A stretch of DNA of 64,000 nt from Arenicellales bacterium (GTDB lineage Bacteria > Pseudomonadota > Gammaproteobacteria > Arenicellales > JAJDZL01), in contig CBDAUJ010000005.1 in NCBI GenBank assembly GCA_965200545.1, positions 25,585-89,584 on the forward strand. Reading direction: 5' to 3'. The position numbers and the translations under genes are program-made. Shown here in pieces: positions 601-13,535 of the stretch. The notes below the pieces were generated by a model. The model searched no databases and had not been told where the DNA came from. It worked only from the letters and a program-made list of their open reading frames with translations. How positions within the stretch are numbered: position 1 is the first letter of the stretch; every line of letters starts with the position of its first letter.

Positions 601-1923
601 TCATTCGCCTGCGGCTGATTTTCCTGAACCGTCGTCATTGAATGATGGCCCCGCAACTGCAGCTTGGATTTCTGCTATCGTCGATTCTGCAACCCAGTCA
701 TCGTTCTCAGACGGCGTTTCAACTGTGTATTCCGCAGGTTTCCATCCAGTGCTCAGTCCGACAAAATGCAAAAACCAAATATCAGTGACTTTGCCGTAAA
801 CTGTATCGATTCTCGGTTTCGGATACTTGAACTTGAACACTTTCTTTGTCAATTCCCAAATAACTTTTTTCACCTTGAACAGCATCATGAGCTGAAGCGG
901 ATACCTTTTTCGGAACTCATCGTTTTTTTCCGAGTCAGTTGTATGGACTGTGTTGTAACCAACATTGCCAAAACTGTAGATGTATTTTGTTCGCCCGTAT
1001 GGATTCCATATTTTGCTCAATCCCTGATAGCCAGGCCTGCGTTCCCGATACGTGAAATCCCAGCATCTGACCTCGCTGCTGCGCATGACTGCCGGGTCGC
1101 TGGGCACCATAAATTGACTCACGGCGAGGCAGCCAGGCGTTGGAGAATGCAATGTCTTGTCAAGATGCTCAAGTAAATTGCCTTTCGAAAGCATCAGATA
1201 TTCGTCGACATCAAAATTCAGACAGTAGCCGTCAGCAACTGCAAACCGCATTCGACAGTGATTCAATGACCCGATCTGGCAGTAGAAATAAGGCTTGAAC
1301 CCCCCATAGAGGAAGGGCCAGTCCACGAATACAATTTCCAAATTCAGTCTCAGCTGCATGAGAAACTCAATCACTTCTTTTCGGGACTGACTCTGGTTGT
1401 CGTAAAACACAAGCCGATTCACACCATGCATTCTGCTGTACCAGGCAACCCAGTCGGATATCCAAGGTATTGGGTTGTCTTTCTGTAAAGTAGTCAGCGT
1501 CAGTCGACGATCTTGACTTGAAATAAGCGTAGGGATAGAGTGACTCGATTCCAAGGGGACAGTGACGAAAAACGAAGTGAACTCAAACACCACATCGAAT
1601 CGATCAGGCAAGACAGTGTCAATGGATTCGGTGCGCAAAAAGACAAGTTCTTTGATTGACTGAATCCGATAGTTGACAGCTTGACCCAAAATACGAATCG
1701 TCAGTGGCCAAATATCTTTGCGCAAGTTGAGTAACTCTGGCCCCAGACCTACAACACAATTTTCTGTCTCATCAAAAAATACGTCATAGAATACCGTGAG
1801 CGAATCCAAGCTTTTCTTGTGCTCATCGGACAATTCTGAATATCGCGGAAACTCTCTTCGGACTGGTGCCGATTCTGGAATACAAACTGGACGAGGCTGA
1901 TAGATGATTACATTAGCCATCAC
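601..1923 (-). CDS. GT-A fold glycosyltransferase (GT92/GT2-like)
   Basis: TLQKDN..WI.DWV.WY...HGV....FYDN.S segment, Q...LNHC and the DxD motif FDVDEY. Confidence 0.7.
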   Translation of the reverse strand: MMANVIIYQPRPVCIPESAPVRREFPRYSELSDEHKKSLDSLTVFYDVFFDETENCVVGLGPELLNLRKDIWPLTIRILGQAVNYRIQSIKELVFLRTESIDTVLPDRFDVVFEFTSFFVTVPLESSHSIPTLISSQDRRLTLTTLQKDNPIPWISDWVAWYSRMHGVNRLVFYDNQSQSRKEVIEFLMQLRLNLEIVFVDWPFLYGGFKPYFYCQIGSLNHCRMRFAVADGYCLNFDVDEYLMLSKGNLLEHLDKTLHSPTPGCLAVSQFMVPSDPAVMRSSEVRCWDFTYRERRPGYQGLSKIWNPYGRTKYIYSFGNVGYNTVHTTDSEKNDEFRKRYPLQLMMLFKVKKVIWELTKKVFKFKYPKPRIDTVYGKVTDIWFLHFVGLSTGWKPAEYTVETPSENDDWVAESTIAEIQAAVAGPSFNDDGSGKSAAGE

Positions 1924-2123
1924 TGTTGTCTCGTTTTGAACGGAGATAGCTGCGCATCGAATTGATATATTTTGAATAAGGCTCTGTCTCAGGATGCTAG
2001 GATTGCTCCAAATGTCAATCAGATCAGTCTGCCTCGAAACAGAGAATCTTAGAAATTGAGAGTCTGCTTGCGATGAATAAAGAGCATTATGATTTTACAA
2101 ATCATAGCCGATAAATGTGATGA

Positions 2124-2766
2124 TTGGATTATTCTTTCAGCCAAAAATTATTGTCTGCACGATTTTGTTCTATCTGTTTGCGTTCGCTCATTGCTGTTGC
2201 ACAGAGTGCAAATCCCGACACATCGTATGTAAAGATTCTATTTCAAGAGCTGAGTAACACACTATGCGACTCAAACTCGGATAATCTGGATTTAGACTTT
2301 GATGGGATAGATTCGAAATATTCTGCTCAGCCTCTGACATTTGGATACAAAGTCGAGGCAGTCAATAAACAGCTGTTCGTTTCCAGCGACAACGGCGAAA
2401 GTCCTGAAAACTACATATACGCATATCGACCAGAATTAATCTGGCTGGCTTGGAATAGTTGAGAACATCTAGAAGTCCCAAGTTGTTGATTTAGAAACGT
2501 GGACAAAAGATCTGATCCAAGAAATTCCAACCACTTCAGACAAGAGCCTTGATCAGATATTCGTTATAGCCGGCGAGCATGAGCTGAATCACAGATGGTG
2601 GCGAGCAGATCAGTATTTCGGATTCAGATTTGCCGACTTGCCTTTAGCCGAATCTATAGCGAGTGCAGATCATGTTTCAGCTGGCGGTGAAATTGCTGAA
2701 AAAATAGAGCGAATTCTCAAATATAAGGCAGTTTCAATAGACAAGACAAACCTCAACCTTCCCTAA
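2124..2766 (+). pseudogene. Fragmented hypothetical gene, truncated by the IS1380 end
   Basis: ORF 2124-2462, then a second stop-free frame ~2473-2766 (VVDLETWTKDLIQE...) whose stop codon lies inside the IS inverted repeat. Confidence 0.4.
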
Positions 2767-4443
2767 ATCCGCGTTAGAGCGACATTTTCGCATCAATTGG
2801 TCGATTTCGGCCTTTTTCGAGCCCGATTTTGCCGTGTCGGTCAGCCGCGGTGAGAAAAATCGGGAATCGGCTTGTCCAAACGGCGCACTGGCGCCGCTTG
2901 GGCAGCCTTTCGGCCCATTCAGTACACGCGCAACCCTCAGCGGAGCGCTGATATCTGTCAGATTGAAAGCGCCGCCGGCAGCGGCGCCGAGTCAGGCGGC
3001 CGGCAGCAGCCGGTCAATGCCATCCATCACCCGATCCAGCAGCAGCCGGTGACGATGCCGCATCCGCAGCGCCGTCTGGCGGGCGTGATGCGCAATCCGG
3101 CCACAAATCGCAAACAGCCGACAGCGTACCGTCGAGGCCCGAGCGCTCTCAAACTCCTGCGGCAGCGTGAAGCGAAACAAAACAGACACGCTGCATGCAA
3201 ACGCACTGAGCGACAGCCGCAGCGCATTGGCCTGATGATCACTGCACGGCATCCGCCCGCTGGCGAAATCCTGCCTCATCTCGCGGATGCGATTCTCGCT
3301 GCATTCGCCACGCCGGCTGTACCAGCGCACGATGCCGCTGTCATCCCAGCCGTCCAGCACATCCAGATTGGTCCCAATCGCACGATACACAGACCGGTCG
3401 CAGTCAATCGTCTGATTGTCCACCCCGCACAGCATCTCCAGCCGCTGCTGAACCGGCCCGCCGTCATCGGCCTCATCTTTCAGACGACGCTGAATCAAAG
3501 CGGCGAGCGCCTCCTCAGCACCGCCCGTCACATGCAGCATGCGCAGCGTCGATTCTTTCTGTGACAGCGCGCCGTCGCGCCGGCGCAGCGGCTGCCAGCC
3601 GCTTTCTCGGCTGCTCGCAATCGCAAACCGAATGTCATCGCAGCTTTTCGCCCGAATCGCACAGCCAATGCCGTGCGCATGGCAATACCCGATGACCTGC
3701 TTTGACCAGCCGGCTGCATCAATGCGCACCCGGGTTACCTTCACCCCCGATGGCAAGGCCCGGATACAGCGCTTGATAAAACCTGAATTGTCATCGTTCG
3801 GCGGGCGATTGCCGCGCCGAAAATCACTCGCCGCCACCTGCCCGGTCTCAGCGATGCGGCCGACCATCGGCATATATCCTCGCTGTCCAAGATAGGTTCG
3901 CCGCGCATGCTTTTTGCCGCACAGCGCCGCGGTCGCATCGATGTCCAGCGTCACCTGACACCGGTCACCCAGCGCCATCTGGATGACTCTCGCATTCAGC
4001 CGCTCCAGCAGCTTGCGGCCCGCACCGCAGCGGCCCAGCGCGTCGGCTTTGGGAATCCGCCGGATGCCCGGCAGCGGCATCAAGCCCCGCTCGGCATGCA
4101 GATGGCGCACATCCTCCAGACACTGCCCGCCCTCAATGAACAGCAGCACAAACACATTGAGAAACTCGCTGGCGCGACAGCCCCGGCTGCTGCCGGCAGC
4201 TGGAAACAGCTGCTCGCACTGCTCGCTCAAACCCAGCTTGGCCATGAAATGCGCCAATGCCGTCAGTCCGGCTCGGGAGGTGAATTTCGCGCCGGTCGAT
4301 TCGCGTCGGTGTGGTACAATCCCCATCAGCCTTGCTCCGTATTCTGGTGATGTCTCACCCAATGGGTGAAACGGATTTAGTTTTCAACCTGTTATATTGG
4401 CAGGGCTTTTCTTGTTTTTGAGTTCTCTAAAGCGGATTTAGGG
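2761..4443 (-). mobile_element. IS1380-family insertion sequence
   Basis: 19-bp terminal inverted repeats ccctaaatccgcgttagag (2761-2779) and ctctaaagcggatttaggg (4425-4443), 1 mismatch; encloses the transposase; GC-richer than its flanks. Confidence 0.88.
2992..4362 (-). CDS. IS1380-family DDE transposase (possibly somewhat degenerate)
   Basis: TSRAGL N-terminus; TLDIDAT, RIDAAG and YSRRGECSENRIRE DDE motifs. Confidence 0.88.
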   Translation of the reverse strand: MGETSPEYGARLMGIVPHRRESTGAKFTSRAGLTALAHFMAKLGLSEQCEQLFPAAGSSRGCRASEFLNVFVLLFIEGGQCLEDVRHLHAERGLMPLPGIRRIPKADALGRCGAGRKLLERLNARVIQMALGDRCQVTLDIDATAALCGKKHARRTYLGQRGYMPMVGRIAETGQVAASDFRRGNRPPNDDNSGFIKRCIRALPSGVKVTRVRIDAAGWSKQVIGYCHAHGIGCAIRAKSCDDIRFAIASSRESGWQPLRRRDGALSQKESTLRMLHVTGGAEEALAALIQRRLKDEADDGGPVQQRLEMLCGVDNQTIDCDRSVYRAIGTNLDVLDGWDDSGIVRWYSRRGECSENRIREMRQDFASGRMPCSDHQANALRLSLSAFACSVSVLFRFTLPQEFESARASTVRCRLFAICGRIAHHARQTALRMRHRHRLLLDRVMDGIDRLLPAA

Positions 4444-4708
4444 GTTTTGAAACATACTTTTTCGAATAGCCGACATTCAGTTTCGCAAATCGACCATTTG
4501 AAGATAAACGCATTCGCGAAACTCGCCTTACCTCAACCATTTGAGATGTTGAATCATCACAACCGAATGCTTCTAACCAATTTACTGAGAGCCCTGATTC
4601 ATTCTCCCTGAGACAGAATGCTGTCCCTTCAACATGCTCTCCATCCATCTGCCTGGGCCTGATGTATCGCACAACATGATGGTCAGATGCTATCTTCTGG
4701 CTGCTCAT
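4427..4708 (-). pseudogene. Putative ART-fold toxin-like protein, C-terminally truncated by IS1380
   Basis: HVVRY...AF..R..E.GLSVNW pattern resembles ORF 10961-11437; the last codons and stop lie inside the IS inverted repeat. Confidence 0.5.
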
Positions 4709-5243
4709 ACATCATCCAATTGAGATTCAATGCCTTCAATTGACTTATTACTGCGCTGGAGTTTGCTACACCATAAGATCTGGATACGATTGATGACCTG
4801 GCTCCATCATCGCTGAACAACACATATTCGATTGAATCGCTGTTCATGAACTGCAATCCTATAAATGACTCACCGTCGCAATTCCAAACTGCGCGCAGAT
4901 TGCCGTTGTCTTTCAGCACAAGGGATCCTTTTTTGGTTGGCAAGAGTTGCCAAGTAAATTGCCTGAATCCTTCCATAGAGTCTGAATTAAACGGTTCGTT
5001 GTCGGCTTCGCTCTCTGTTTTCAAAAATTGCAGCCGTCTATCATACTGTTTTGCTACTTTTAGAAAACGCGAGAATAGACAATTACGCTCAGGTATACGA
5101 ATGTTTGAGTACGACATAAAGAAGCGCGAACTCTGAGTCGATCGATTTTGCACTTCACTTGTTGCATGAAAAAAGTTTCTGTCTGCATTCGCAAGAGAAT
5201 TTGGTGGAACCTCGATATTAAGAATCACGTCTCTCAAGATCAA
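4683..5243 (-). CDS. Hypothetical protein, partner of the downstream toxin-like ORF
   Basis: 186 aa; overlaps the downstream ORF; C-terminal LVLKDNGNLRAVW...FIGLQF...IEY resembles 10417-10980. Confidence 0.6.
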   Translation of the reverse strand: MILRDVILNIEVPPNSLANADRNFFHATSEVQNRSTQSSRFFMSYSNIRIPERNCLFSRFLKVAKQYDRRLQFLKTESEADNEPFNSDSMEGFRQFTWQLLPTKKGSLVLKDNGNLRAVWNCDGESFIGLQFMNSDSIEYVLFSDDGARSSIVSRSYGVANSSAVISQLKALNLNWMMYEQPEDSI

Positions 5244-6699
5244 ATGATCCTTAATTTTGGGTAAAAGTAGAGGAGTAAGCTTTCATTGGTTCTAACATCC
5301 AAAATTTTCCTTGTGATCGAAGTTATAGTTCATTTTTCGGGGTTGCCATCCGACCAAAATATTGAATTGATATTTACGGATTGTAAGGTACTGCAAGTTT
5401 TAACGGAAAAAGACAGCACACCATGCCAGGCTTATCAAGATGCTTGTAGACAGTGCTCGACAAAAAATCAAACTCTCTGATTTTCCGACCAACGTGATTA
5501 ACTGGCCAGCAATGTTGCATTGCCAGCACGAAATCTGTATTCCAGCATATCGGCGTAAAAACTGGAATAAAAATTTACAAGCCTGATATCAGTGCTGCAA
5601 ATGCATGAGTCGCTCAAGAAACCTGGGCTTATTTGCATGTTTTCTGCGAACCTTTTCCAGACGTATGAAGTATTCCTCAGCCGAGCCATTCCTATCAGCC
5701 AATGTCTTTAGATCAGACAGCAATTGAGCCGCGGCATCATAACTTCTGCCGCTTTTGATTTTGAGTTGCTTTTCAACATCTTGCCACGCAGATTCACCTT
5801 TGCGAAAGATTGCATCCAGTCGCTCTTGGTAAACTTGCTGTTCTCTGATTCTGCGCCGCTCTTGCTCGACTTCCCGCTGCTTGCGCTCAGCAACATGGCG
5901 CTCCTCACGAACCTGTTCCGAACGGATACGCAATTCCGATGCGGTTCGATAGGTACGGGCCGCCGAAGCAGAGGCTAGATCAGCATCATTCACTATTTTT
6001 CGAATTTCTAAAACGACATGAGGATCGCCGTCCGCGATCCGGCATAGCAATCTCGTCTTTTCATCATCAGGCATATCTTTGATCGCTGCGTGACTGACCT
6101 TCGCGCCTTTCTTATCATTGGAACTGCCAGCTGGCCCCTCGGCTGCGGCCGCAACCAGATCAGGATCAATTCGGAGAAAATTTGCAAAAGACTTCAGTGT
6201 TGCGTTCAGAGGCCCAATGCCAGGCAGCGGTTCTTTGATCTCATCTCGGAGTCCGCCCTGGTCAACCATCCAGAGCCATGCCAAATAGAGCGCTCGCAAA
6301 TCGCCGGAAAGAATGTCAGATCTGAGCATTGCCATACCTGCAAGCGAATAGGAATCCCCGTCTGAATCATCCCAATAATCGTCTTCTTCAGGACTAGAGC
6401 AGAAGTCAAGAAGCACATTACTCTCCAGCGTCGATTACCTTTAAAATTCCAAATTCATTCAAGAAAGGCTTGAACTGCGACTGATCGACCAGCCGCTGGG
6501 GCAATCGAATCATGAGCTGGCGCGTTCCCCAACTGTTCCAATACAGATGCAGATCAAACCAGCGTCTCATGAATTGATGCACACTGCCCTTAAAGTCTCC
6601 CCAGTGATATTCATTGGCAAAACTTGTTTCTGATATGTTTTAACCTGTTTGTCGTTTCCCGGATTCGTTCAATATACAATAATACTCTGATGAAGAAAA

Positions 6700-6882
6700 G
6701 CAGCAGGTGCGGCCTTGGCGGTGACACTGAGTTGACAATCTGATATGCGTGGGTTGATTACCACATGACTCTGTTGCGTCACGGATCTGCCTCAGTCTGA
6801 TTTCGTGGATCGCATTGGCCATATGGCCAATGCGCCGACCTAGAAACAACGAGGGTTTTTCCATAAGACCTGCACCTGCTGC
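6700..6882 (-). ncRNA. Predicted bridge/seek RNA of the IS1111-type element
   Basis: 11-bp closing stem (6700-6710 with 6872-6882), perfect 24-bp palindrome 6811-6834, and segments matching the element end (6739-6747) and the target flank (6842-6849). Confidence 0.7.
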
Positions 6883-6892
6883 GATTGATCGG

Positions 6893-8128
6893 TCAGCGCT
6901 CAGCCTCGACCTGCAGCCGGCGCAGCTCGTGGCAGCCGATGTCCCAGATGAAGCCGGCCAGCTCGCGGGCGATGGCGGTGACAACGGTTTTGGAGCTCTT
7001 GCCTTTGCGGCACAGCGCCAGATATCGGCCGCACAGTCTTTTCTGGGCCACCCAGGCGCGTTTCACAGCGTATTCGGAAGCGTGCTGCGCCTTGCGCTGG
7101 AGATGTCTGGTGCGGCGTGGCGGATGGCGGTAAGTCCAGGCGCTTTCGGTGAGGATTCTGCGCACTGCGCCATTGCCGGTCCGGGTGATGGCGCCGGTGC
7201 GCCGGCGCGAGCCGCTGCTGAACTCGCTGGGTGTCAGGCCGAGATACGCCATGAACTGTCCGGCGCTGCGGAAGCGGCGCAGGTCGCCGATCTCAGCGGC
7301 CACAGTGACAGCGGTCAGCGTGTCGATCCCGCGCAGGGCGCGCAGCGACTCGACCAGCGGATGGAGTGTCCACAGCTCGCACTGGGCGCCAATGTCGCGC
7401 TCCAGCTCGCTGAGGCGCTGTTCCTGCTGCTCCACAGTGTCCAGGGCGCTGGCCAGCGCAATCTGCTGCGCCGGATGGGAAAACTTCCGGTCTCGCAGCC
7501 AGCTGCGGTGCGCCCGAGTCCACTTGGTTCGGGACCATTGATGACCGTGACGCAGCACAAAATGATTCAGCTGCTGGCGCTGTTTTTGAATACTGCCCTT
7601 GAGGTCGGCGCGCAGGCGCACCAGATCCCGCATGGCCTCCTGCTCGGCATCCGGCACCCACACCGGCGTCAGGCTGCCCAGCGCGGACAGCCGCGCCAGC
7701 TCGCGCGCATCGCGCCGGTCGGTCTTGACCCGGACACCGGGCTTTTTCGGAATCAGCGAAGGCGCCGCCACCTCGCAGCTCACGCCCAGGTCCCGAAGCT
7801 GGCGCCAGATCACAAAGCCGCACGCGCCCGCCTCATACGCCGCATGCACCGACTCGCCGAATTCCTGCCGCAGCCCCTCGATCAGCTTGAGCAGCGCCCC
7901 CGGCCGGTTGGCCACCGTGCCGCGATCCTCAACCGACAGCGGCCGAGACGGATGCGGCCGATACGCCACCGCCACGGCCACCGTGTCCTTGTGAACATCC
8001 AGCCCCGCATGGACCAGCATCCGCCCCGTCGATTCCAAACCCCCGCTGTCACGCTCTCTATAATCTTTCATGCCTGCTCCTCTGGTGGTGGTGAAACGTT
8101 GGAAATACGCATATTCTATATCGCGCAC
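6893..8128 (-). CDS. IS110-family DEDD recombinase/transposase (true start may be downstream, ~8071 or ~8020)
   Basis: GLDVHKD, YEAG and KTDRRDA (DEDD RuvC-like domain); GLTPSEFSSG serine loop; AIARELA C-terminus. Confidence 0.95.
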   Translation of the reverse strand: MRDIEYAYFQRFTTTRGAGMKDYRERDSGGLESTGRMLVHAGLDVHKDTVAVAVAYRPHPSRPLSVEDRGTVANRPGALLKLIEGLRQEFGESVHAAYEAGACGFVIWRQLRDLGVSCEVAAPSLIPKKPGVRVKTDRRDARELARLSALGSLTPVWVPDAEQEAMRDLVRLRADLKGSIQKQRQQLNHFVLRHGHQWSRTKWTRAHRSWLRDRKFSHPAQQIALASALDTVEQQEQRLSELERDIGAQCELWTLHPLVESLRALRGIDTLTAVTVAAEIGDLRRFRSAGQFMAYLGLTPSEFSSGSRRRTGAITRTGNGAVRRILTESAWTYRHPPRRTRHLQRKAQHASEYAVKRAWVAQKRLCGRYLALCRKGKSSKTVVTAIARELAGFIWDIGCHELRRLQVEAER

Positions 8129-9001
8129 TCCCGATAATTTGTGCAGAACAGGTTAAAACATAGGGTCTGTGATATGGGCTCGGCTCGACACGCTTCGCAT
8201 CGCCTTCATATCCTCAGCACTCAGGATGTTGTCGATCGCTCGAAATTCCAAATATTGGTATTCGCTCATAATTGATTCAATCCATAAAGTTGGAGATGTT
8301 CGGATCTTTTTACCAAGACAGGCAAAATTTAATTCACTCGTTCCAGACAAGAAAACGATGGTTTTGCGCACCCAAATTTTGCGACTTGCCGAAATCAGAA
8401 GTCTTGAATGTTAGTTTAGCAAATGTCAATTCTGATTTTTTCACGCACACACCTTTGTTTGAATGACCCGGCCTCCTTAAGGGCCGAGAGAAGCTCAAAA
8501 AGCAAGCTCGCTGCACCACGGCAGAAGATGATCCGATACTATTGGGGTACGCTATAGTTTCTTGCCAAGCTCTGCGACTCAGCAGACCCTCAGGAAGTGG
8601 CCATGTTTTTCGCAATATCGGATTTGTATGGTGCACTCATGCTGAATGATCGCAGTTCCAGCTGCAAGGCTTCGGCAAGAAAGATCTCCATCGACTAGGC
8701 AACGCCTCCATGACCGCCCGCGCATTGGCGCAGAGCCGTATCCGAAAGCGAATGGACAGCATTGTGAATGATAATCCGGAACATCTTCCACAGCTGCGCG
8801 GCACAGCTCAGCCAGGTGACTCGCTTTATCAGCTCGCTGCCCGCAGCGCCGAGCATGGCATAGCGATCTTGGGTCAGCGCAAGGCGTACCAAAATCAGAT
8901 GGCACACCGCCGACAAGCACAGCAACGTATTGGGAGCGCAAAAGATCGCTGCCAATCAAGAGGCTCAATAGAACTCTTTATCGCCACTGTGTACCCTCCA
9001 A

Positions 9002-9120
9002 AACAGTCGGGAAGATATTTACTGTACGGGTTGGCAGCGCTGCGAGATTGGCCTCAAGAGAGCAACAGGCTCGATTGTTTGAATCAGGCGGAATACTTCA
9101 TACTGAAACGCTTCCAGTCT
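9002..9120 (+). repeat. ~119-bp direct-repeat copy of an internal segment of the AlbA_2 gene (12414-12531)
   Basis: Near-identical aacagtcgggaa.atattt...gaatcaggcggaatacttcatactgaaacgcttcc.gtct at both loci. Confidence 0.92.
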
Positions 9121-9604
9121 GCAAATCAGAGGACCCCGTAGCGCCTCCAGGATCGCCATGCGCTCGGCCTTACGCCTGATTCTCTGGCGATCGGCGAAAT
9201 TCTTCCCCGCGCCGCTGTACTTTCTTATGCCTTTGATGATTTTTCGCAGAACACTCATTCCAATAACCCAGCATCACGTACTTTCAACTGCAGATTTATC
9301 GCAGACCGTGAGTCAAAACGTCGGCCCTTACATTGTCATACCGTTCGTGAGCTTTCCAGACGAGATAATCTACACTCGGTGCCGATAAACAGCCAATTCT
9401 AGATCAATGCTTGCAATCAGGCAATCACGATGAATCAAGCTGTTAACCGAAGTAAGATGTCAATCAGATTCCAGCATCTCTTGTTGCAATAGCCGCAGAG
9501 CGACCCTGTCCGCCATATTCAAAATAAATTTGTTTGTAGTGCGTCGCGCTTGAATACAATAGAAAATTATTTTGGACAAGCGACATGAACGGTCGTGTGA
9601 AGTC

Positions 9605-10424
9605 TTGAGCATAGAAAAAATCAATCTTTTTGCCAATAAGCATGCGATTGAGGTTGTAAATTTTGTCGTATGCCTGTCTACGCCAATTGACAGCTCAGAC
9701 CTGCGGCGTTTTGCCGAAAGCATGGATAGCCTGAAGAAATGGTTTCCGGCAATCAGCGACCTTGCGACACTGCAGATCGAAATACCCAGCGGCTTGCATA
9801 CAAATTCATTGCCGCCGCCATTGCCAGTCAAAGAAATGGCTTATTTTGCCAGTGATGGCACCCGACAATGGATTGGGGAATTTGGCGTTAACCAAATCAT
9901 GGTCTCCTGTCGGCAATACTCAACTTGGAATCAAATATGGCCCGAAGCGAAAAATCGACTTGATGCCCTTCTGGCATGTATTGACCCCCTACAAGACGGT
10001 GCGTTCCGTCGATTACAGTGTTACTGACACGTTCAATGCAAAAAGGAGCGACGAAGCACTGACAGCGCTGAATCTTTTCAAACCTGTTCCGCTCATTCCA
10101 AAACACCTGCTCGATTACCATGATCCAAGATGGGATATCAGCCAAGGCTGGTTTGAGCAAAGTTCCGAAGGAGACCAGGTTTTAGTCAGATTTGACGCAA
10201 AAAGCGGAATTCATAACGACTCAGTATTGGCAAGCATAAGCAATCTGCATTCAGTGCAATTCAAAATGCCCGCCACTGTAAACGAGGTTGGCGATTCAGA
10301 AAGTCAAACAAATATGGAATCAATTTTCAATCACCTGCATGATAAGAACAAAATAATGATCCGAAAAATTCTTTCTGATGACTTGCTGTCACGGATGCAC
10401 TTGAAGGACGGTGTCAATGTTTGA
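9605..10424 (+). pseudogene. TIGR04255-like protein, frameshifted in a short C run near 9985-9988
   Basis: ORFs 9572-10027 and 9762-10424 join: HAIEVVNF...I.V.C..YSTW..IW / VRSVDYSVTDTF...F..LH..NK..I..IL...L..R, a pattern I associate with TIGR04255. Start uncertain. Confidence 0.65.
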
Positions 10425-10980
10425 GGGAACAACTGAATTCGTCTCGAATTATGGCAATATTGCGAAACACAGGTTTCCACTAATCGGTGAGCAATCAACA
10501 CCGTCCACAGCACTTCTGCCATTCAACGGCAGATATCAGAGCAATGAATTTGCGGATGAAACTGTCAGAAACAAACTAGCTGCTGACCCCACTTCGCATC
10601 GCTTGCGAGACAAAGTGCGAGAAGCGTTTCAATACGCCAGCCACACTTATACCGGCTTGGATAAAACTCAACTTCAGCACGCATACGCGGAGGCGCTTCG
10701 GCTCGCAGACAGTGGAATTTTTGAGGCAGAAATAACACCTGATATCTGCATTGATGTATACGGCGAGTTCATTTTCAGCCATAAGTCAGAGGCCGGTTAC
10801 ATTGATATTGGAGTCAGAGGAGAATATCAACTGTCCTATCACGTCAGGAATGATATAGAGCCTGAGAAAACGGCGTATGCCGACCTGGATTGGACGAGTG
10901 GCGGGATCCCGGAAGAATTGTATGCTGCACTGGCTGCATTAAGAAAAAATCTTGTATCAAGTGACAATCAGGTTGTGTAG
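10417..10980 (+). CDS. Hypothetical protein (candidate antitoxin/partner)
   Basis: ~187 aa; ATG overlaps the upstream gene end; low-structure N-terminus, C-terminal PDICIDVYGEFIFSH....YIDIGV.G...LSY. Confidence 0.7.
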   Translation: MFEGTTEFVSNYGNIAKHRFPLIGEQSTPSTALLPFNGRYQSNEFADETVRNKLAADPTSHRLRDKVREAFQYASHTYTGLDKTQLQHAYAEALRLADSGIFEAEITPDICIDVYGEFIFSHKSEAGYIDIGVRGEYQLSYHVRNDIEPEKTAYADLDWTSGGIPEELYAALAALRKNLVSSDNQVV

Positions 10981-11437
10981 CGTTAGCGATAGCGAGACAG
11001 TTGCGAGGCTTTTGTTTTTCCCGCAGATGGTCGTAGATGGAATGCTGATACCAGCAGCATTTCCAATGCAGGAGCTGCCACGCGAGAAAGGAAAAGATGA
11101 ATGTTCTGTTGATCGTTGCGATCTTTTATCAGATAGAAATAAGCTGCTGAAAGACAAAGCCTTTGAGATTGCAAACCCGTCTGGAAATCGTGAACCATTC
11201 GGTTATTCCGTTGGGAAAGCGGTCGATATCAGAAGCATCAAGTCAGATGTTATTTCCGCTCAGGCATTCGAAATTCAACCTGCCCCGATCACTGGGACCA
11301 GTGAAAACTCGAAGCCTTGGGATATGGCTCACGCACTGATTCGCAAATTTGATAGCAACTCCACTAGGAGCCGCCTTCGCGGCTCACGCGACAAGCTTAC
11401 GAATCTATTCTCTGTCTCAATCATGCGATTTGAATGA
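10961..11437 (+). CDS. Hypothetical protein with an R...S...H pattern; candidate ART-fold toxin
   Basis: ETVARL...PAAFP...CSVDR...AHALI; overlaps the upstream gene. The fold assignment is inference; start could be 10952 or 10961. Confidence 0.6.
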   Translation: MTIRLCSVSDSETVARLLFFPQMVVDGMLIPAAFPMQELPREKGKDECSVDRCDLLSDRNKLLKDKAFEIANPSGNREPFGYSVGKAVDIRSIKSDVISAQAFEIQPAPITGTSENSKPWDMAHALIRKFDSNSTRSRLRGSRDKLTNLFSVSIMRFE

Positions 11438-12078
11438 GCTTTGGCGAATCCGTGCTGATCGGTGACTATGTGCTGTATGGTGTCAGCAAACCAGCTCATA
11501 TAGTACTGTAATCGCCGTAAGCTTTTGAGTTGAAAAGCCGCCGCACTGCGAGCGGCCAAGACACTGCTTACGCCAGCAAACGAGCAATAAACCGTCCGTC
11601 TTGTTCGATGAAGCCGAGCTCTGAGCCATTTTTCTCTCTCATGCCCTTGATGAGGATGGCAGCCTCAGTGGATTCTTGACTTCTTGAAACTGAACAGCAA
11701 CCCGGCGCAAGGCCTGCCAGTTAAACATCGACACCGAACAGTCATCAGACTTCCTATGCAATATTTCATGGCAAATTCATATCAATAATATCCTTCATTC
11801 CAGAACTTCACCTTGGCAATGCGTGTGGTATATTTCGACTTGACTGAGCCACTTGTCCAGTGACGGCTGCTTTCAGTCGACGATGACAATAAGGCAATTC
11901 GAAAAGATTAAACAATTGATTCCTAAGCAAATCTTCATTCGGAACATCTGGTCCTCCGGCAGCCTTGACAGAATACAAGGCGCAGCGGCCTTTTCTTTTT
12001 GAGCACGGCGGGCTGTATCGACGACTCGAACAGAGCGCAACAGATTTTGAGATTGAATTTTTGAAAGAAGCCAGCATC

Positions 12079-13311
12079 ATGCTAAAAGCGGATTTATTGG
12101 AAATCATTGCCAATGGCGAAGGCTCTGCTGTTGAATTCAAACGTGATGACTGTCGGCCCGAGCAGTTAGCCAAGGAGATTGTTGCCATGGCAAGCCATCT
12201 TGAAGGCTTGATTCTGCTGGGTGTGGAAGATGATGGCAAAATCAGCGGAATTCACAAAGAAAAGCTCGAGGAATGGTCATAGATGCAGTGGTTTCGCGCA
12301 AAGTTCATCCGCAGCTTCTGCCCTCCTATCAAGAATTGGCAGTGGATCAGGACAAGCGCATTGCAATACTCTCGCTTACGCAAGGGATATCCAAACCCTA
12401 TGTGTTACGACACAACAGTCGGGAAAATATTTACGTACGGGTTGGCGGCGCTGCGAGATTGGCCTCAAGAGAGCAGCAAGCTCGATTGTTTGAATCAGGC
12501 GGAATACTTCATACTGAAACGCTTCCGGTCTCAGGCACATCATTTGAGTCCTTGGATTTGGAGAGAATCAAAGATTACCTGAACAACATTCTGCGAGACC
12601 CAGAAATTCCATCTTCTGACCAACAATGGATACGTCGCCTTTTGGATCTCGGGCTCCTCACCGATAGTGCATTAGAATCGGCAGTTTGCTCAATTGCCGG
12701 CTTGCTCGTGTTTGGACATAAACCAAGGAGATACCTCAAGCAGGCATCAGGCTGATGGCATTCGATGGATTGGAAAAAGATTGCCAGTCAAGACTGGAAG
12801 AAGTGCTTGGCGTACCGCTGGTCGGCCGCTGGCACACAGACCAGAACGGCGAGCGAATACGAGTCTCAAACGGTACAGTTGAGGACGCTATTCAGATTCT
12901 GAAACCGTTTATTACCGAAGAGGACAAAGAGATTGATCAGAGCATGCGCAGAAAAAGAACTTGGCACTATCCGATAGAAGCCGTTCGAGAAATGATTGTG
13001 AATGCAATTGTCCATCGTGCTGGACTCGGTTTATTGATATTGAGATTACCTGCTATGCAAATCGAATTGAGATCGTCAGCCCCGGAGCCATGCAAAATTC
13101 AATGACAGAAGAGAAAATGAAAGCAGGCCAGAGATTGCCGCGTAATATTCTTCTTGTCGACATCTTGAAAGGCTATGGGTATGCTGATGCCCGAGGCATG
13201 GGAGTACGGACAAAAGTTGTGCCGCTCATGCAGCGCATGAACGGCAGCGAACCCGAATTTGAATCCACAGACGACTATCTGAAAACTGTTCTTTATCGAA
13301 AAGTCGAGTAG
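12079..13311 (+). pseudogene. Schlafen/AlbA_2 plus HATPase_c_4-type ('RecG-like') gene in four frameshifted pieces
   Basis: GEGSAVEFKRD, GLILLGVEDDG, YP.EAVREMIVNAIVHR, RIEIVSPG and RGMGV spread across ORFs at 11965, 12273, 12755 and 12961. Confidence 0.85.
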
Positions 13312-13459: not shown

Positions 13460-13535
13460 TGGTGGGCCGTGCAGGAATCGAACCTGCGACAACCTGATTA
13501 AAAGTCAGATGCTCTACCTACTGAGCTAACGGCCC
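13460..13535 (-). tRNA. tRNA-Lys(UUU)
   Basis: gggccgttagctcagtaggtagagcatctgacTTTtaatcaggttgtcgcaggttcgattcctgcacggcccacca; cloverleaf with encoded CCA. Confidence 0.97.

Follow-up and report, generated by a model that had tools for sequence, protein, structure and literature searches.

What is the function of a protein family that is found at the head of two small, overlapping genes, and what do these genes encode? This question is raised by a locus in a stretch of 64,000 nucleotides, in the following called the window, from an Arenicellales bacterium (GenBank assembly GCA_965200545.1, contig CBDAUJ010000005.1, positions 25,585 to 89,584 of the forward strand). Here, positions 9572-11437 of the plus strand contain three co-oriented and overlapping reading frames, which we designate g1, g2 and g3. 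The explanation that we favor, with somewhat better than even confidence, is a cassette in which g3 encodes a toxin with the fold of the ADP-ribosyltransferases (ARTs), g2 an antitoxin that binds it, and g1, a member of the TIGR04255 family, a constant accessory or input element. If this is true, a curated but function-less family gains a concrete role as the invariable first gene of a modular conflict system with three genes in which toxin-antitoxin (TA) pairs are swapped. It would also provide TA and defense biology with a new accessory-protein logic, the ART superfamily with a new Arg-Ser-His branch, and the field with several further toxin candidates of no known fold.

Organization of the g1-g2-g3 locus

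The first gene, g1, is present in two parts: The 5' part (9605..9989) belongs to the TIGR04255 family, and its frame opens with a TTG codon at 9572 and runs into a run of C residues at 9985-9989, whereas the 3' part (9990..10424; YKTVRSVDYSVTD... to the stop codon at 10422-10424) continues in the +1 frame and is collinear with the C-terminal half of the intact protein of a related locus, L006. The corresponding open frames extend over 9572/9605-10027 and 9762-10424, and TTG 9605 is the start used for the 272-amino acid (aa) g1 orthologue. The g2 gene (10417..10980) encodes a putative antitoxin of 187 aa; its frame opens at 10411/10417, and its ATG codon overlaps the stop codon of g1 by 8 nt. 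The g3 gene (10952..11437), the putative toxin gene, encodes 161 aa from TTG 10952, and 154-161 aa depending on whether this codon, GTG 10961 or TTG 10973 is the start. The N-termini of homologues, one of which begins with MCDVDD, favor TTG 10973. With this start, the overlap with g2 would again be 8 nt; it is 8-29 nt over the different starts. Residues of g3 are numbered from 10952 throughout. The public gene call at this position (P0001) comprises 123 aa from Met39 and omits strand 1 with the conserved residues Glu15 and Arg19, a strand that is aligned by all homologues. The layout of the open reading frames (ORFs) agrees with that described in a first-pass annotation, which had reported three overlapping and co-oriented genes.

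The g3 protein likely has an ART-like fold

The g3 family is rare. A word-based search resulted in two proteins, a profile search identified 24 representatives among 1.84 billion at E 1e-3 (16 at E 1e-10), and the family is present in 2 of 400 genomes of the class, the window's own included. In 22 aligned homologues, the residues S52, R55, H127 and A128 are invariant, E15 and R19 are conserved in at least 90%, and F37, P38, G84, D111, R143 and R146 are nearly invariant. The motifs ETVAR, SVDR and AHALI, which had been picked out as characteristic of the protein, are all present.

The AlphaFold2 model of g3 (predicted local distance difference test, pLDDT, 93.2; predicted template modeling score, pTM, 0.87) was compared exhaustively with 48,161 PDB chains using VIA-align, and the best 50 rows were considered. 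The top match is a protein of the Tpt1/KptA type (9ld3_A, Z 6.7, root mean square deviation 3.2, 93 residues aligned), the second is Tse2 (5ako_D, Z 6.2, root mean square deviation 3.7, 113 of 153 residues aligned), and mouse Tpt1 (7yw2_A) is found with Z 5.0. The other matches are Scabin, DarT, AvrPphF, Tne2, PltA, the pertussis, diphtheria and heat-labile toxins, SdeA, NarE, Arr, MbcT and RES. Judged by their titles, about 45 of these 50 rows are members of the ART superfamily, and three are ligase/non-homologous end joining entries. Because of this composition of the match list, each Z score being middling when taken alone, the g3 protein likely adopts the split beta-sheet fold of the ARTs. 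According to the strand order of the model, rather than to a residue-by-residue superposition, R19 is located on strand 1 (16-21), S52 on strand 2 (51-55) and H127 at the start of strand 5 (127-132). The triads of ARTs are described as being drawn from strands 1, 2 and 5. The proposal of an ART-like fold with Arg, Ser and His, originally made from the letters alone, is in good agreement with the model.

The triad is not restricted to the closest relatives of g3. Among 36 aligned third-gene products of TIGR04255 cassettes, R19 is found in 34, S52 in all 36 and H127 in 34, and one of the two proteins without H127 is a truncated ORF. The third position is thus occupied by His in 34 cases, by Tyr in one and by Glu in none. 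The R-S-E clade, i. e. the cholera-toxin-like enzymes, has Arg, Ser or Thr, and a catalytic Glu. Since the third residue is His and never Glu, g3 would not be an R-S-E enzyme, and any chemistry with NAD+ can be suggested from the modeled fold only with caution. In one homologue of g3 (P0005), an MGMT-type DNA-binding domain (PF01035, E 5e-10) is attached at the C-terminus; this fusion is a single pointer that may hint at a nucleic acid target. Glu50, two residues before Ser52, is unique to the g3 protein of the window; its close relatives have Gly.

The strong representation of Tpt1-type proteins among the best structural matches (Z 6.7, 5.0, 4.3 and 3.7) raises the question whether g3 might not be a toxin at all but an enzyme of the Tpt1/KptA-like RNA or nucleotide 2'-phosphotransferase type, with g1 and g2 as substrate-handling partners. 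The triad without a catalytic Glu would be compatible with this idea, and the sole named match in BFVD with a template modeling (TM) score above 0.35 is a putative phage RNA 2'-phosphotransferase, at a non-significant E of 0.67. However, g3 spans only the NAD+-binding lobe of these enzymes (chain ranges 86-180 and 109-216) and lacks the N-terminal RNA-binding lobe. Moreover, Tpt1 and KptA belong to the H-H-h clade of the ARTs with a His-His-hydrophobic signature rather than Arg-Ser-His, and g3 resides in a mobile three-gene cassette. The distribution of g3 in the class is sporadic, the genes often decay and are found in islets, and behind the same lead gene, g3 is swapped with MazF-type and other third genes. 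Because g3 is sporadic, decaying, islet-borne and interchangeable, we prefer a conflict system over a housekeeping repair function and regard a phosphotransferase as quite improbable.

The similarity to Tse2 of Pseudomonas aeruginosa suggests another way in which g3 might be toxic: g3 might be a secreted antibacterial effector, g2 its immunity protein, and g1 an adaptor for secretion. Tse2 and g3 are both small (about 155 aa) and ART-like in fold, and Tse2 is neutralized, according to a review, by a protein that binds it directly and blocks its active site. In addition, in a record labelled Ralstonia phage (see below) the cassette adjoins genes that resemble, by eye only, PAAR and DUF4123 genes. 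In contrast to the Tse2-Tsi2 pair, the cassette contains an additional TIGR04255 gene; g3 has no sequence similarity to Tse2 and no match to the Pfam model ADPRTs_Tse2. A type VI secretion system was not found in any of five carrier genomes (94-98% complete) that were inspected for VipB/TssC and Hcp. The order of a protector gene followed by a toxin gene is typical of TA pairs, and in one sister cassette the last gene encodes MazF, a TA toxin of the cytoplasm. We therefore consider a secreted effector very improbable, and return to the idea of a TA pair with an intracellular toxin.

g2 is predicted to bind g3, and the three genes recur together

If g3 is a toxin, g2 is the obvious candidate for its antitoxin. 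The homologues of g2 (n=21) vary at the N-terminus but share a C-terminal core that is strongly conserved, YGEF.FSH.S.AGY.DIGVRG...LSYHVRND. The g2 profile also matches the second genes of remoter cassettes (E 1e-8 to 1e-11 in a small set), in which a 'WDGYG' helix is followed by the same beta-rich unit as in g2. The protein itself matches no known family: A sequence-profile search of the PDB yielded nothing above chance level, Pfam yielded sub-threshold rows (E 0.07-0.09) for two distant second genes only, and PHROGs has no family for g2, for g3 or for the g1 protein of the window (read from L006). One homologue of g2 (P0038) has an N-terminal KTSC domain (PF13619, E 3e-21).

A complex prediction had been proposed in the first-pass annotation for all three proteins; for g2 and g3 it was made with custom alignments, and it supports direct binding in silico. 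The score for g2 and g3 is 0.83 as compared to 0.06 for the best of three controls, and the mark applied to this score is reached by 58 of 80 solved complexes and by 2 of 110 mismatched pairs. Three runs have at least 49% of their contacts in common, with partner pLDDT values of at least 70. In the predicted interface, residues 109-156 of the g2 core are in contact with residues 24-40 and with the helix 138-147 of g3, which bears the conserved residues R143 and R146.

The layout of g2 and g3 is that of type II TA systems, i. e. adjacent and translationally coupled small genes with the antitoxin gene upstream, and it is kept in 13 loci. The g2 profile matches 15 of 243 genomes of the order. Ten of these have intact g1, g2 and g3 genes, intactness being defined as a stop-free frame of the expected length; in the window's own genome, only g1 is broken, and four are otherwise incomplete: g1 is split and g3 truncated in L015, L013 and L023 contain fragments, and L017 keeps no more than an intact g2. 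Two more intact trios were found in a genome of the same order (L008) and on a metagenome contig (L009), resulting in 12 intact loci besides the window; a profile scan of metagenomes yielded one locus. The three families do thus co-occur elsewhere, as had to be expected if they form a unit. All ten first genes tested match TIGR04255, nine of them above the cut-off. Finally, g3 is full-length at 13 loci, all of which have a full-length g2 as well, and g2 is found without a full g3 in L015 and L017. Even though the numbers are small, this asymmetry is the pattern expected of a toxin and its antitoxin.

TIGR04255 genes precede different gene pairs

The assignment of g1 to TIGR04255, first made from the letters alone, was confirmed with the NCBIfam model: A score of 31.5 bits was obtained for the N-terminal piece (cut-off 30, E 1.5e-7), and one of 30.6 bits in a genome search with neighbors in frame included. 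The intact g1 protein of L006 scores 43.1 bits and covers profile positions 28-251 of 252. This protein is thus a single chain of the usual size (about 250-290 aa) along the whole profile, whereas g1 of the window is interrupted by its frameshift. There is no credible Pfam match for g1 of the window, nor does Pfam have a family for two other TIGR04255 proteins of this genome. The g1 fragments, g2 and g3 have no match in PADLOC-DB 2.0.0 at E 0.1, in keeping with the earlier view of an undescribed system, as far as the 2023 catalogue goes.

Within the phylum, TIGR04255 is present in 32 of 401 sampled genomes (about 8%). We examined 31 loci, 29 from this search and two from the window's genome (one of them all, L044, was read by eye). 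At 29 of the 31 loci, the TIGR04255 gene is followed by two abutting or overlapping co-oriented frames; one locus is at a contig end, and one lacks such frames. Among the third genes, at least seven unrelated types can be distinguished: the Arg-Ser-His ART-like type (seven loci by BLASTP and four via profiles), 'GLTCATFV' (about 230 aa, four loci), 'SNTCDM' (about 200 aa, six loci), 'SQCCDVV' (about 290 aa, three loci, or four with L044), 'RKISxAKW' (two loci), a singleton (one locus), and a PemK/MazF toxin (one locus, Pfam E 1.5e-18). Every type of third gene is paired with its own type of second gene. Known families are scarce among these proteins. For 30 second and third genes, the only Pfam matches above the cut-off are MazF and one helix-turn-helix (HTH) domain, HTH_3, and REV1_C remains below it (E 0.005). 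Among 28 proteins of ten cassettes, 27 have no PADLOC match at E 0.01, and one first gene weakly matches PDC-S05 (E 0.0047). For four of the other third-gene types, PHROGs contains matching families, whose function is unknown.

The pair types cluster on a tree calculated for 37 first genes, which needs 8 changes as compared to a minimum of 6 and a mean of 16.3 after shuffling; this tree is descriptive only, as kin carry the same labels. One clade with 100/100 support contains three pair types, and two pair types are split, which suggests an occasional exchange of cassettes. The genome of the window illustrates this diversity, since it harbors three more TIGR04255 loci (L001, C3:303290-305288; L003, C6:79600-81390; L002/L005, C2:336271-338385), each followed by two small genes of other families. 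One of them is an intact 'RKISxAKW' cassette, another contains an ART-like third gene (SVDR, NPYHAEI) with a frameshift, and in the remaining one a frameshifted TIGR04255 gene is followed by an HTH protein.

A conserved family that is combined with many unrelated toxins, with an exchange of partners on the tree, is reminiscent of Panacea (DUF4065) and other hyperpromiscuous TA parts. In the case of Panacea, however, the pairs consist of two genes, and it is their antitoxin that constitutes the promiscuous domain (PMC8832971), whereas TIGR04255 is a third component, and each type of toxin brings its own second gene.

The genomic context was surveyed for ten related loci with flanks of 6-8 kb. 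One is part of an island of TA and abortive infection genes (AlbA_2 with a Fic-like C-terminal domain, a HipA N-terminal domain, PrlF-YhaV and Abi_2), one is in an integrase-AAA_25-HTH_17-capsid element, one adjoins an integrase, one is accompanied by transposases and AAA_21-RloB, and one adjoins a transposase. This context is suggestive of mobile or defense islets. Two individual records deserve mention. ON170239.1 (L067; labelled Ralstonia phage, UNVERIFIED_ORG) contains a full TIGR04255/'WDGYG'/Arg-Ser-His cassette at 194-2061; only 193 bases separate it from the end of the record, and the downstream genes look PAAR-, DUF4123- and effector-like by eye only. On the Thermus brockianus plasmid pTB1 (L066), an annotated TIGR04255 gene (4016-4756) is located close to a CopG-VapC pair, a DNA methylase gene and cas6, and the product of the next gene (148 aa) does not match the g2 or g3 profiles.

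TIGR04255 is not mentioned in the literature that was searched, which excluded supplementary tables, so that a recent or tabulated listing is possible. This search otherwise returned general papers on TA systems, on toxin-antitoxin-chaperone (TAC) systems including CmdTAC, and on ARTs, and 'Tse2-like' appears in unrelated papers only. The three-gene cassette family is thus apparently both widespread and undescribed. One may go further and regard TIGR04255 as a universal third component, a non-enzymatic sensor or adaptor of a new, widespread and polymorphic class of tripartite abortive infection systems with Arg-Ser-His, MazF and Cys-motif toxins, in which the Arg-Ser-His proteins form a new clade of nucleic acid-modifying ARTs. 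This generalization is tentative, and we would rather doubt it in its full extent.

The first gene of the cassette is frameshifted in the window

The related locus L006 in the chromosome of an Arenicellales metagenome-assembled genome is syntenic to that of the window and was reached via its g3 protein, which is 94% identical (single-protein scan, one locus). It contains, in this order, an uninterrupted g1 (272/283 aa), g2, g3, an intact AlbA_2/HATPase_c_4 gene of 439 aa, and the tRNA gene. The comparison confirms the extra base that had been noticed in the C run of g1: The window has five C residues at 9985-9989 and L006 has four, and in about 880 aligned bases of g1 DNA with 98% identity, the extra C is the only indel. 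Among the Logan assemblies, X1 has no gaps relative to the window over 9500-12509, and X2, from the same sample, has none over 9888-10320, so that the contigs agree with the window at the run. X3, from another sample of the same study, matches the window where the two overlap, and X4, from a related strain, lacks the extra C. X1 and X2 may represent the source sample of the window and thus rule out the artefact of a single assembly, but not a shared sequencing bias; the contigs of X2 are short, suggesting short reads. Since the extra base is also present in other assemblies of the same sample, we consider the frameshift to be genuine.

In this strain, g1 and its AlbA_2 neighbor are therefore best read as pseudogenes, with g2 and g3 intact. 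The ratios of nonsynonymous to synonymous substitution rates versus L006 are 0.20-0.38 for all parts (few substitutions; 0.31 for the 3' part of g1), and the break of g1 would therefore be recent. Because g1 carries a real +1 frameshift and the neighboring gene has decayed, the cassette is probably a two-gene remnant of the full system; the locus of this strain would be a decaying copy. The synonymous divergence of g2 between the two loci is 0.23 (window 10417-10980, L006 4466-5029) as compared to 0.05-0.11 for g1 and g3, which suggests that g2 is recombined or mosaic in this pair.

Fold and possible role of g1

The model of g1 (pLDDT 93.6, based on an alignment of 38 sequences) points to a two-repeat alpha+beta fold of sheet plus helix that resembles TBP and AdoMetDC and seems to have no close relative. 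Foldseek retrieved AdoMetDC/prozyme (E 2e-5, TM only 0.28), TBP and RepDE; VIA-align retrieved RepDE (Z 7.0), the N-terminal domain of spermine synthase (Z 6.7), McsB/arginine kinase (Z 6.6), AdoMetDC (Z 6.3), TBP (Z 5.5) and RnlA (Z 4.4). A sequence-profile search of the PDB gave rows at chance level only. Among the 38 sequences, Y105 is the sole invariant residue, and no conserved set that looks catalytic was found. We take g1 to be a non-enzymatic binding protein.

What might such a protein bind? The first-pass annotation had drawn an analogy to the TAC systems, with TIGR04255 in place of the SecB-type chaperone. CmdTAC is described as a TAC system with an mRNA ADP-ribosyltransferase as the toxin. 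The cassette shares with these systems the three genes, the cognate protein antitoxin, possibly an ART-like toxin, a third conserved protein that is common to different TA pairs, and the proposed role in phage defense. It differs from them in that the third protein is TIGR04255 with its TBP/AdoMetDC-like two-repeat fold and not a SecB homologue, that its gene is the first of the operon and not the last, and that this gene is broken here with the other two genes intact. SecB is absent from the best 50 rows of both g1 structure searches, although such an absence does not exclude a likeness. In TAC systems, the SecB-like chaperone is needed to keep the antitoxin alive, and loss of the chaperone should free the toxin. 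Addiction of this kind would keep all three genes together, but the window has a frameshifted g1 and intact g2 and g3. Since g1 is dispensable in this strain, a SecB-like addiction role is unlikely, and the analogy is not supported in this form.

The main rival for the role of g1 is that of an omega/PaaR-like transcriptional regulator of the operon that would bind the promoter via its TBP-like sheet, with g2 and g3 as a plain type II pair. Three-component TA systems with regulators are known, and in omega-epsilon-zeta and paaR-paaA-parE the order of accessory protein, antitoxin and toxin is the same as in our cassette. Several observations fit this idea: The structural matches of g1 include the DNA-binding proteins TBP and RepDE, and HTH_3 was found in only 1 of 15 second genes tested, most second genes being without a DNA-binding domain. 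Moreover, a strain can tolerate the loss of a repressor as long as g2 and g3 continue to be expressed together, in agreement with the intact g2 and g3 genes of the window. However, the first genes of the known systems encode small DNA-binding repressors, whereas the TIGR04255 proteins have 250-300 aa, are poorly conserved, and contain no recognized DNA-binding motif. The TBP-like fold is also found in proteins that do not bind DNA, such as AdoMetDC, arginine kinase and RnlA from the same match list. A scan of the locus for promoters and terminators identified sites no more frequently than by chance; operators were not searched for. Taken together, we judge the regulator to be unlikely, even if it is the most serious competitor of a g1 protein that acts as accessory or input element.

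How the cassette may work

In the explanation that we favor, g3 would be a small ART-fold toxin with an unusual Arg-Ser-His triad, most likely an NAD+-using modifier of nucleic acid or of a component of translation. The g2 protein would be the cognate antitoxin that neutralizes g3 by direct binding via its conserved, beta-rich C-terminal core. The g1 protein, a non-enzymatic two-repeat protein common to many unrelated TA pairs, would most likely serve as a sensor or adaptor that decides on the release of g3 by g2, for example upon infection by a phage.

Several observations weigh against this explanation. With respect to g3, the structural Z scores are all below 8, Foldseek with the g3 model found no match at E 1e-3 in the PDB and BFVD, and a Pfam scan detected no ART-clan model, ADPRTs_Tse2 included, at E 0.1. 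His replaces the Glu of the proven R-S-E transferases, so that NAD+ chemistry is not assured, and position 111 ('DP' after strand 4; about 11282-11284) is Ala in the window and L006 but Asp in 26 of 36 relatives. With respect to a mobile defense system, no match for g3 was obtained by tblastn against plasmid and phage collections, and of the ten loci surveyed for context, three are located between housekeeping genes and two among ORFs without a Pfam match. Finally, the broken g1 gene implies that the full system is probably inoperative in this strain, and were g1 required to restrain g3, a strain with a broken g1 should not exist. The remoteness of g3 is also evident from a search of its profile against solved ART chains in the PDB, which gave no sequence match at E 10, and from its 30 nearest clusters in the ESM Atlas, which are all without a Pfam family.

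The surroundings of the locus and a second, truncated pair

A second pair of genes is encoded on the minus strand at 4427-5243. It consists of an ORF of 186 aa that resembles second genes (4683..5243) and a truncated ORF of 93 aa that resembles third genes (4427..4708). It had been described as a second partial copy of the cassette at 4443-5243; it is, however, not a copy, as neither g2 nor g3 shows BLASTP similarity to it. The 93-aa product is related to the third gene of L049 (E 4.5e-6) and, in a set of 18 sequences, to that of L037 (E 1.8e-7) and to a broad g3 profile (E 1e-5), with which the Arg of HHVVRY and the Ser of LSVNW are aligned. The 186-aa ORF is weakly similar in BLASTP to the second genes of L049 and L050 (E 1e-3 and 2e-3, set of 16 sequences). 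The 93-aa ORF lacks the C-terminal half with the His residue and ends beside an insertion sequence (IS) at 2992-4362; the missing half was not found elsewhere in the window, and there is no TIGR04255 gene upstream of the pair. Because the similarity is seen only via other subtypes, the His-bearing half is missing and a TIGR04255 gene is lacking, the pair is regarded as a truncated, distant paralogue of another subtype.

Downstream of g3, a decayed gene (11965..13311, plus strand) combines a Schlafen/AlbA_2 N-terminal and a HATPase_c_4 C-terminal Pfam domain in at least four frames; it corresponds to the intact AlbA_2/HATPase_c_4 gene of L006. As compared to X4, it has six indels, at 11912, 12004, 12276, 12739 (4 nt), 13019 and 13351. 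In another genus, a related cassette (L060) likewise has an AlbA_2 gene at a distance of about 6 kb. The islet is bounded by a tRNA-Lys (UUU) gene (13460..13535, minus strand), so that the link to a tRNA that had been pointed out earlier holds; the arrangement is the same in L006.

Upstream of g1, the window contains a mosaic of about 7.6 kb (1923-9572) that is extra in comparison to L006 and separates a gene for a 440-aa protein (601-1923) from g1. This mosaic holds the IS with a 456-aa transposase (2992-4362) and the truncated second pair. An IS110-type transposase gene (6893-8128) interrupts another gene, the pieces of which are at 8153-8371, 6418-6582 and 5589-6416. A direct repeat of about 122 nt (8999-9120 and 12411-12531, 92-96% identity) represents a fragment of the AlbA_2 gene that is duplicated upstream of the cassette, and one contig of X1 links 12531 back towards 9500 via 379 other letters.

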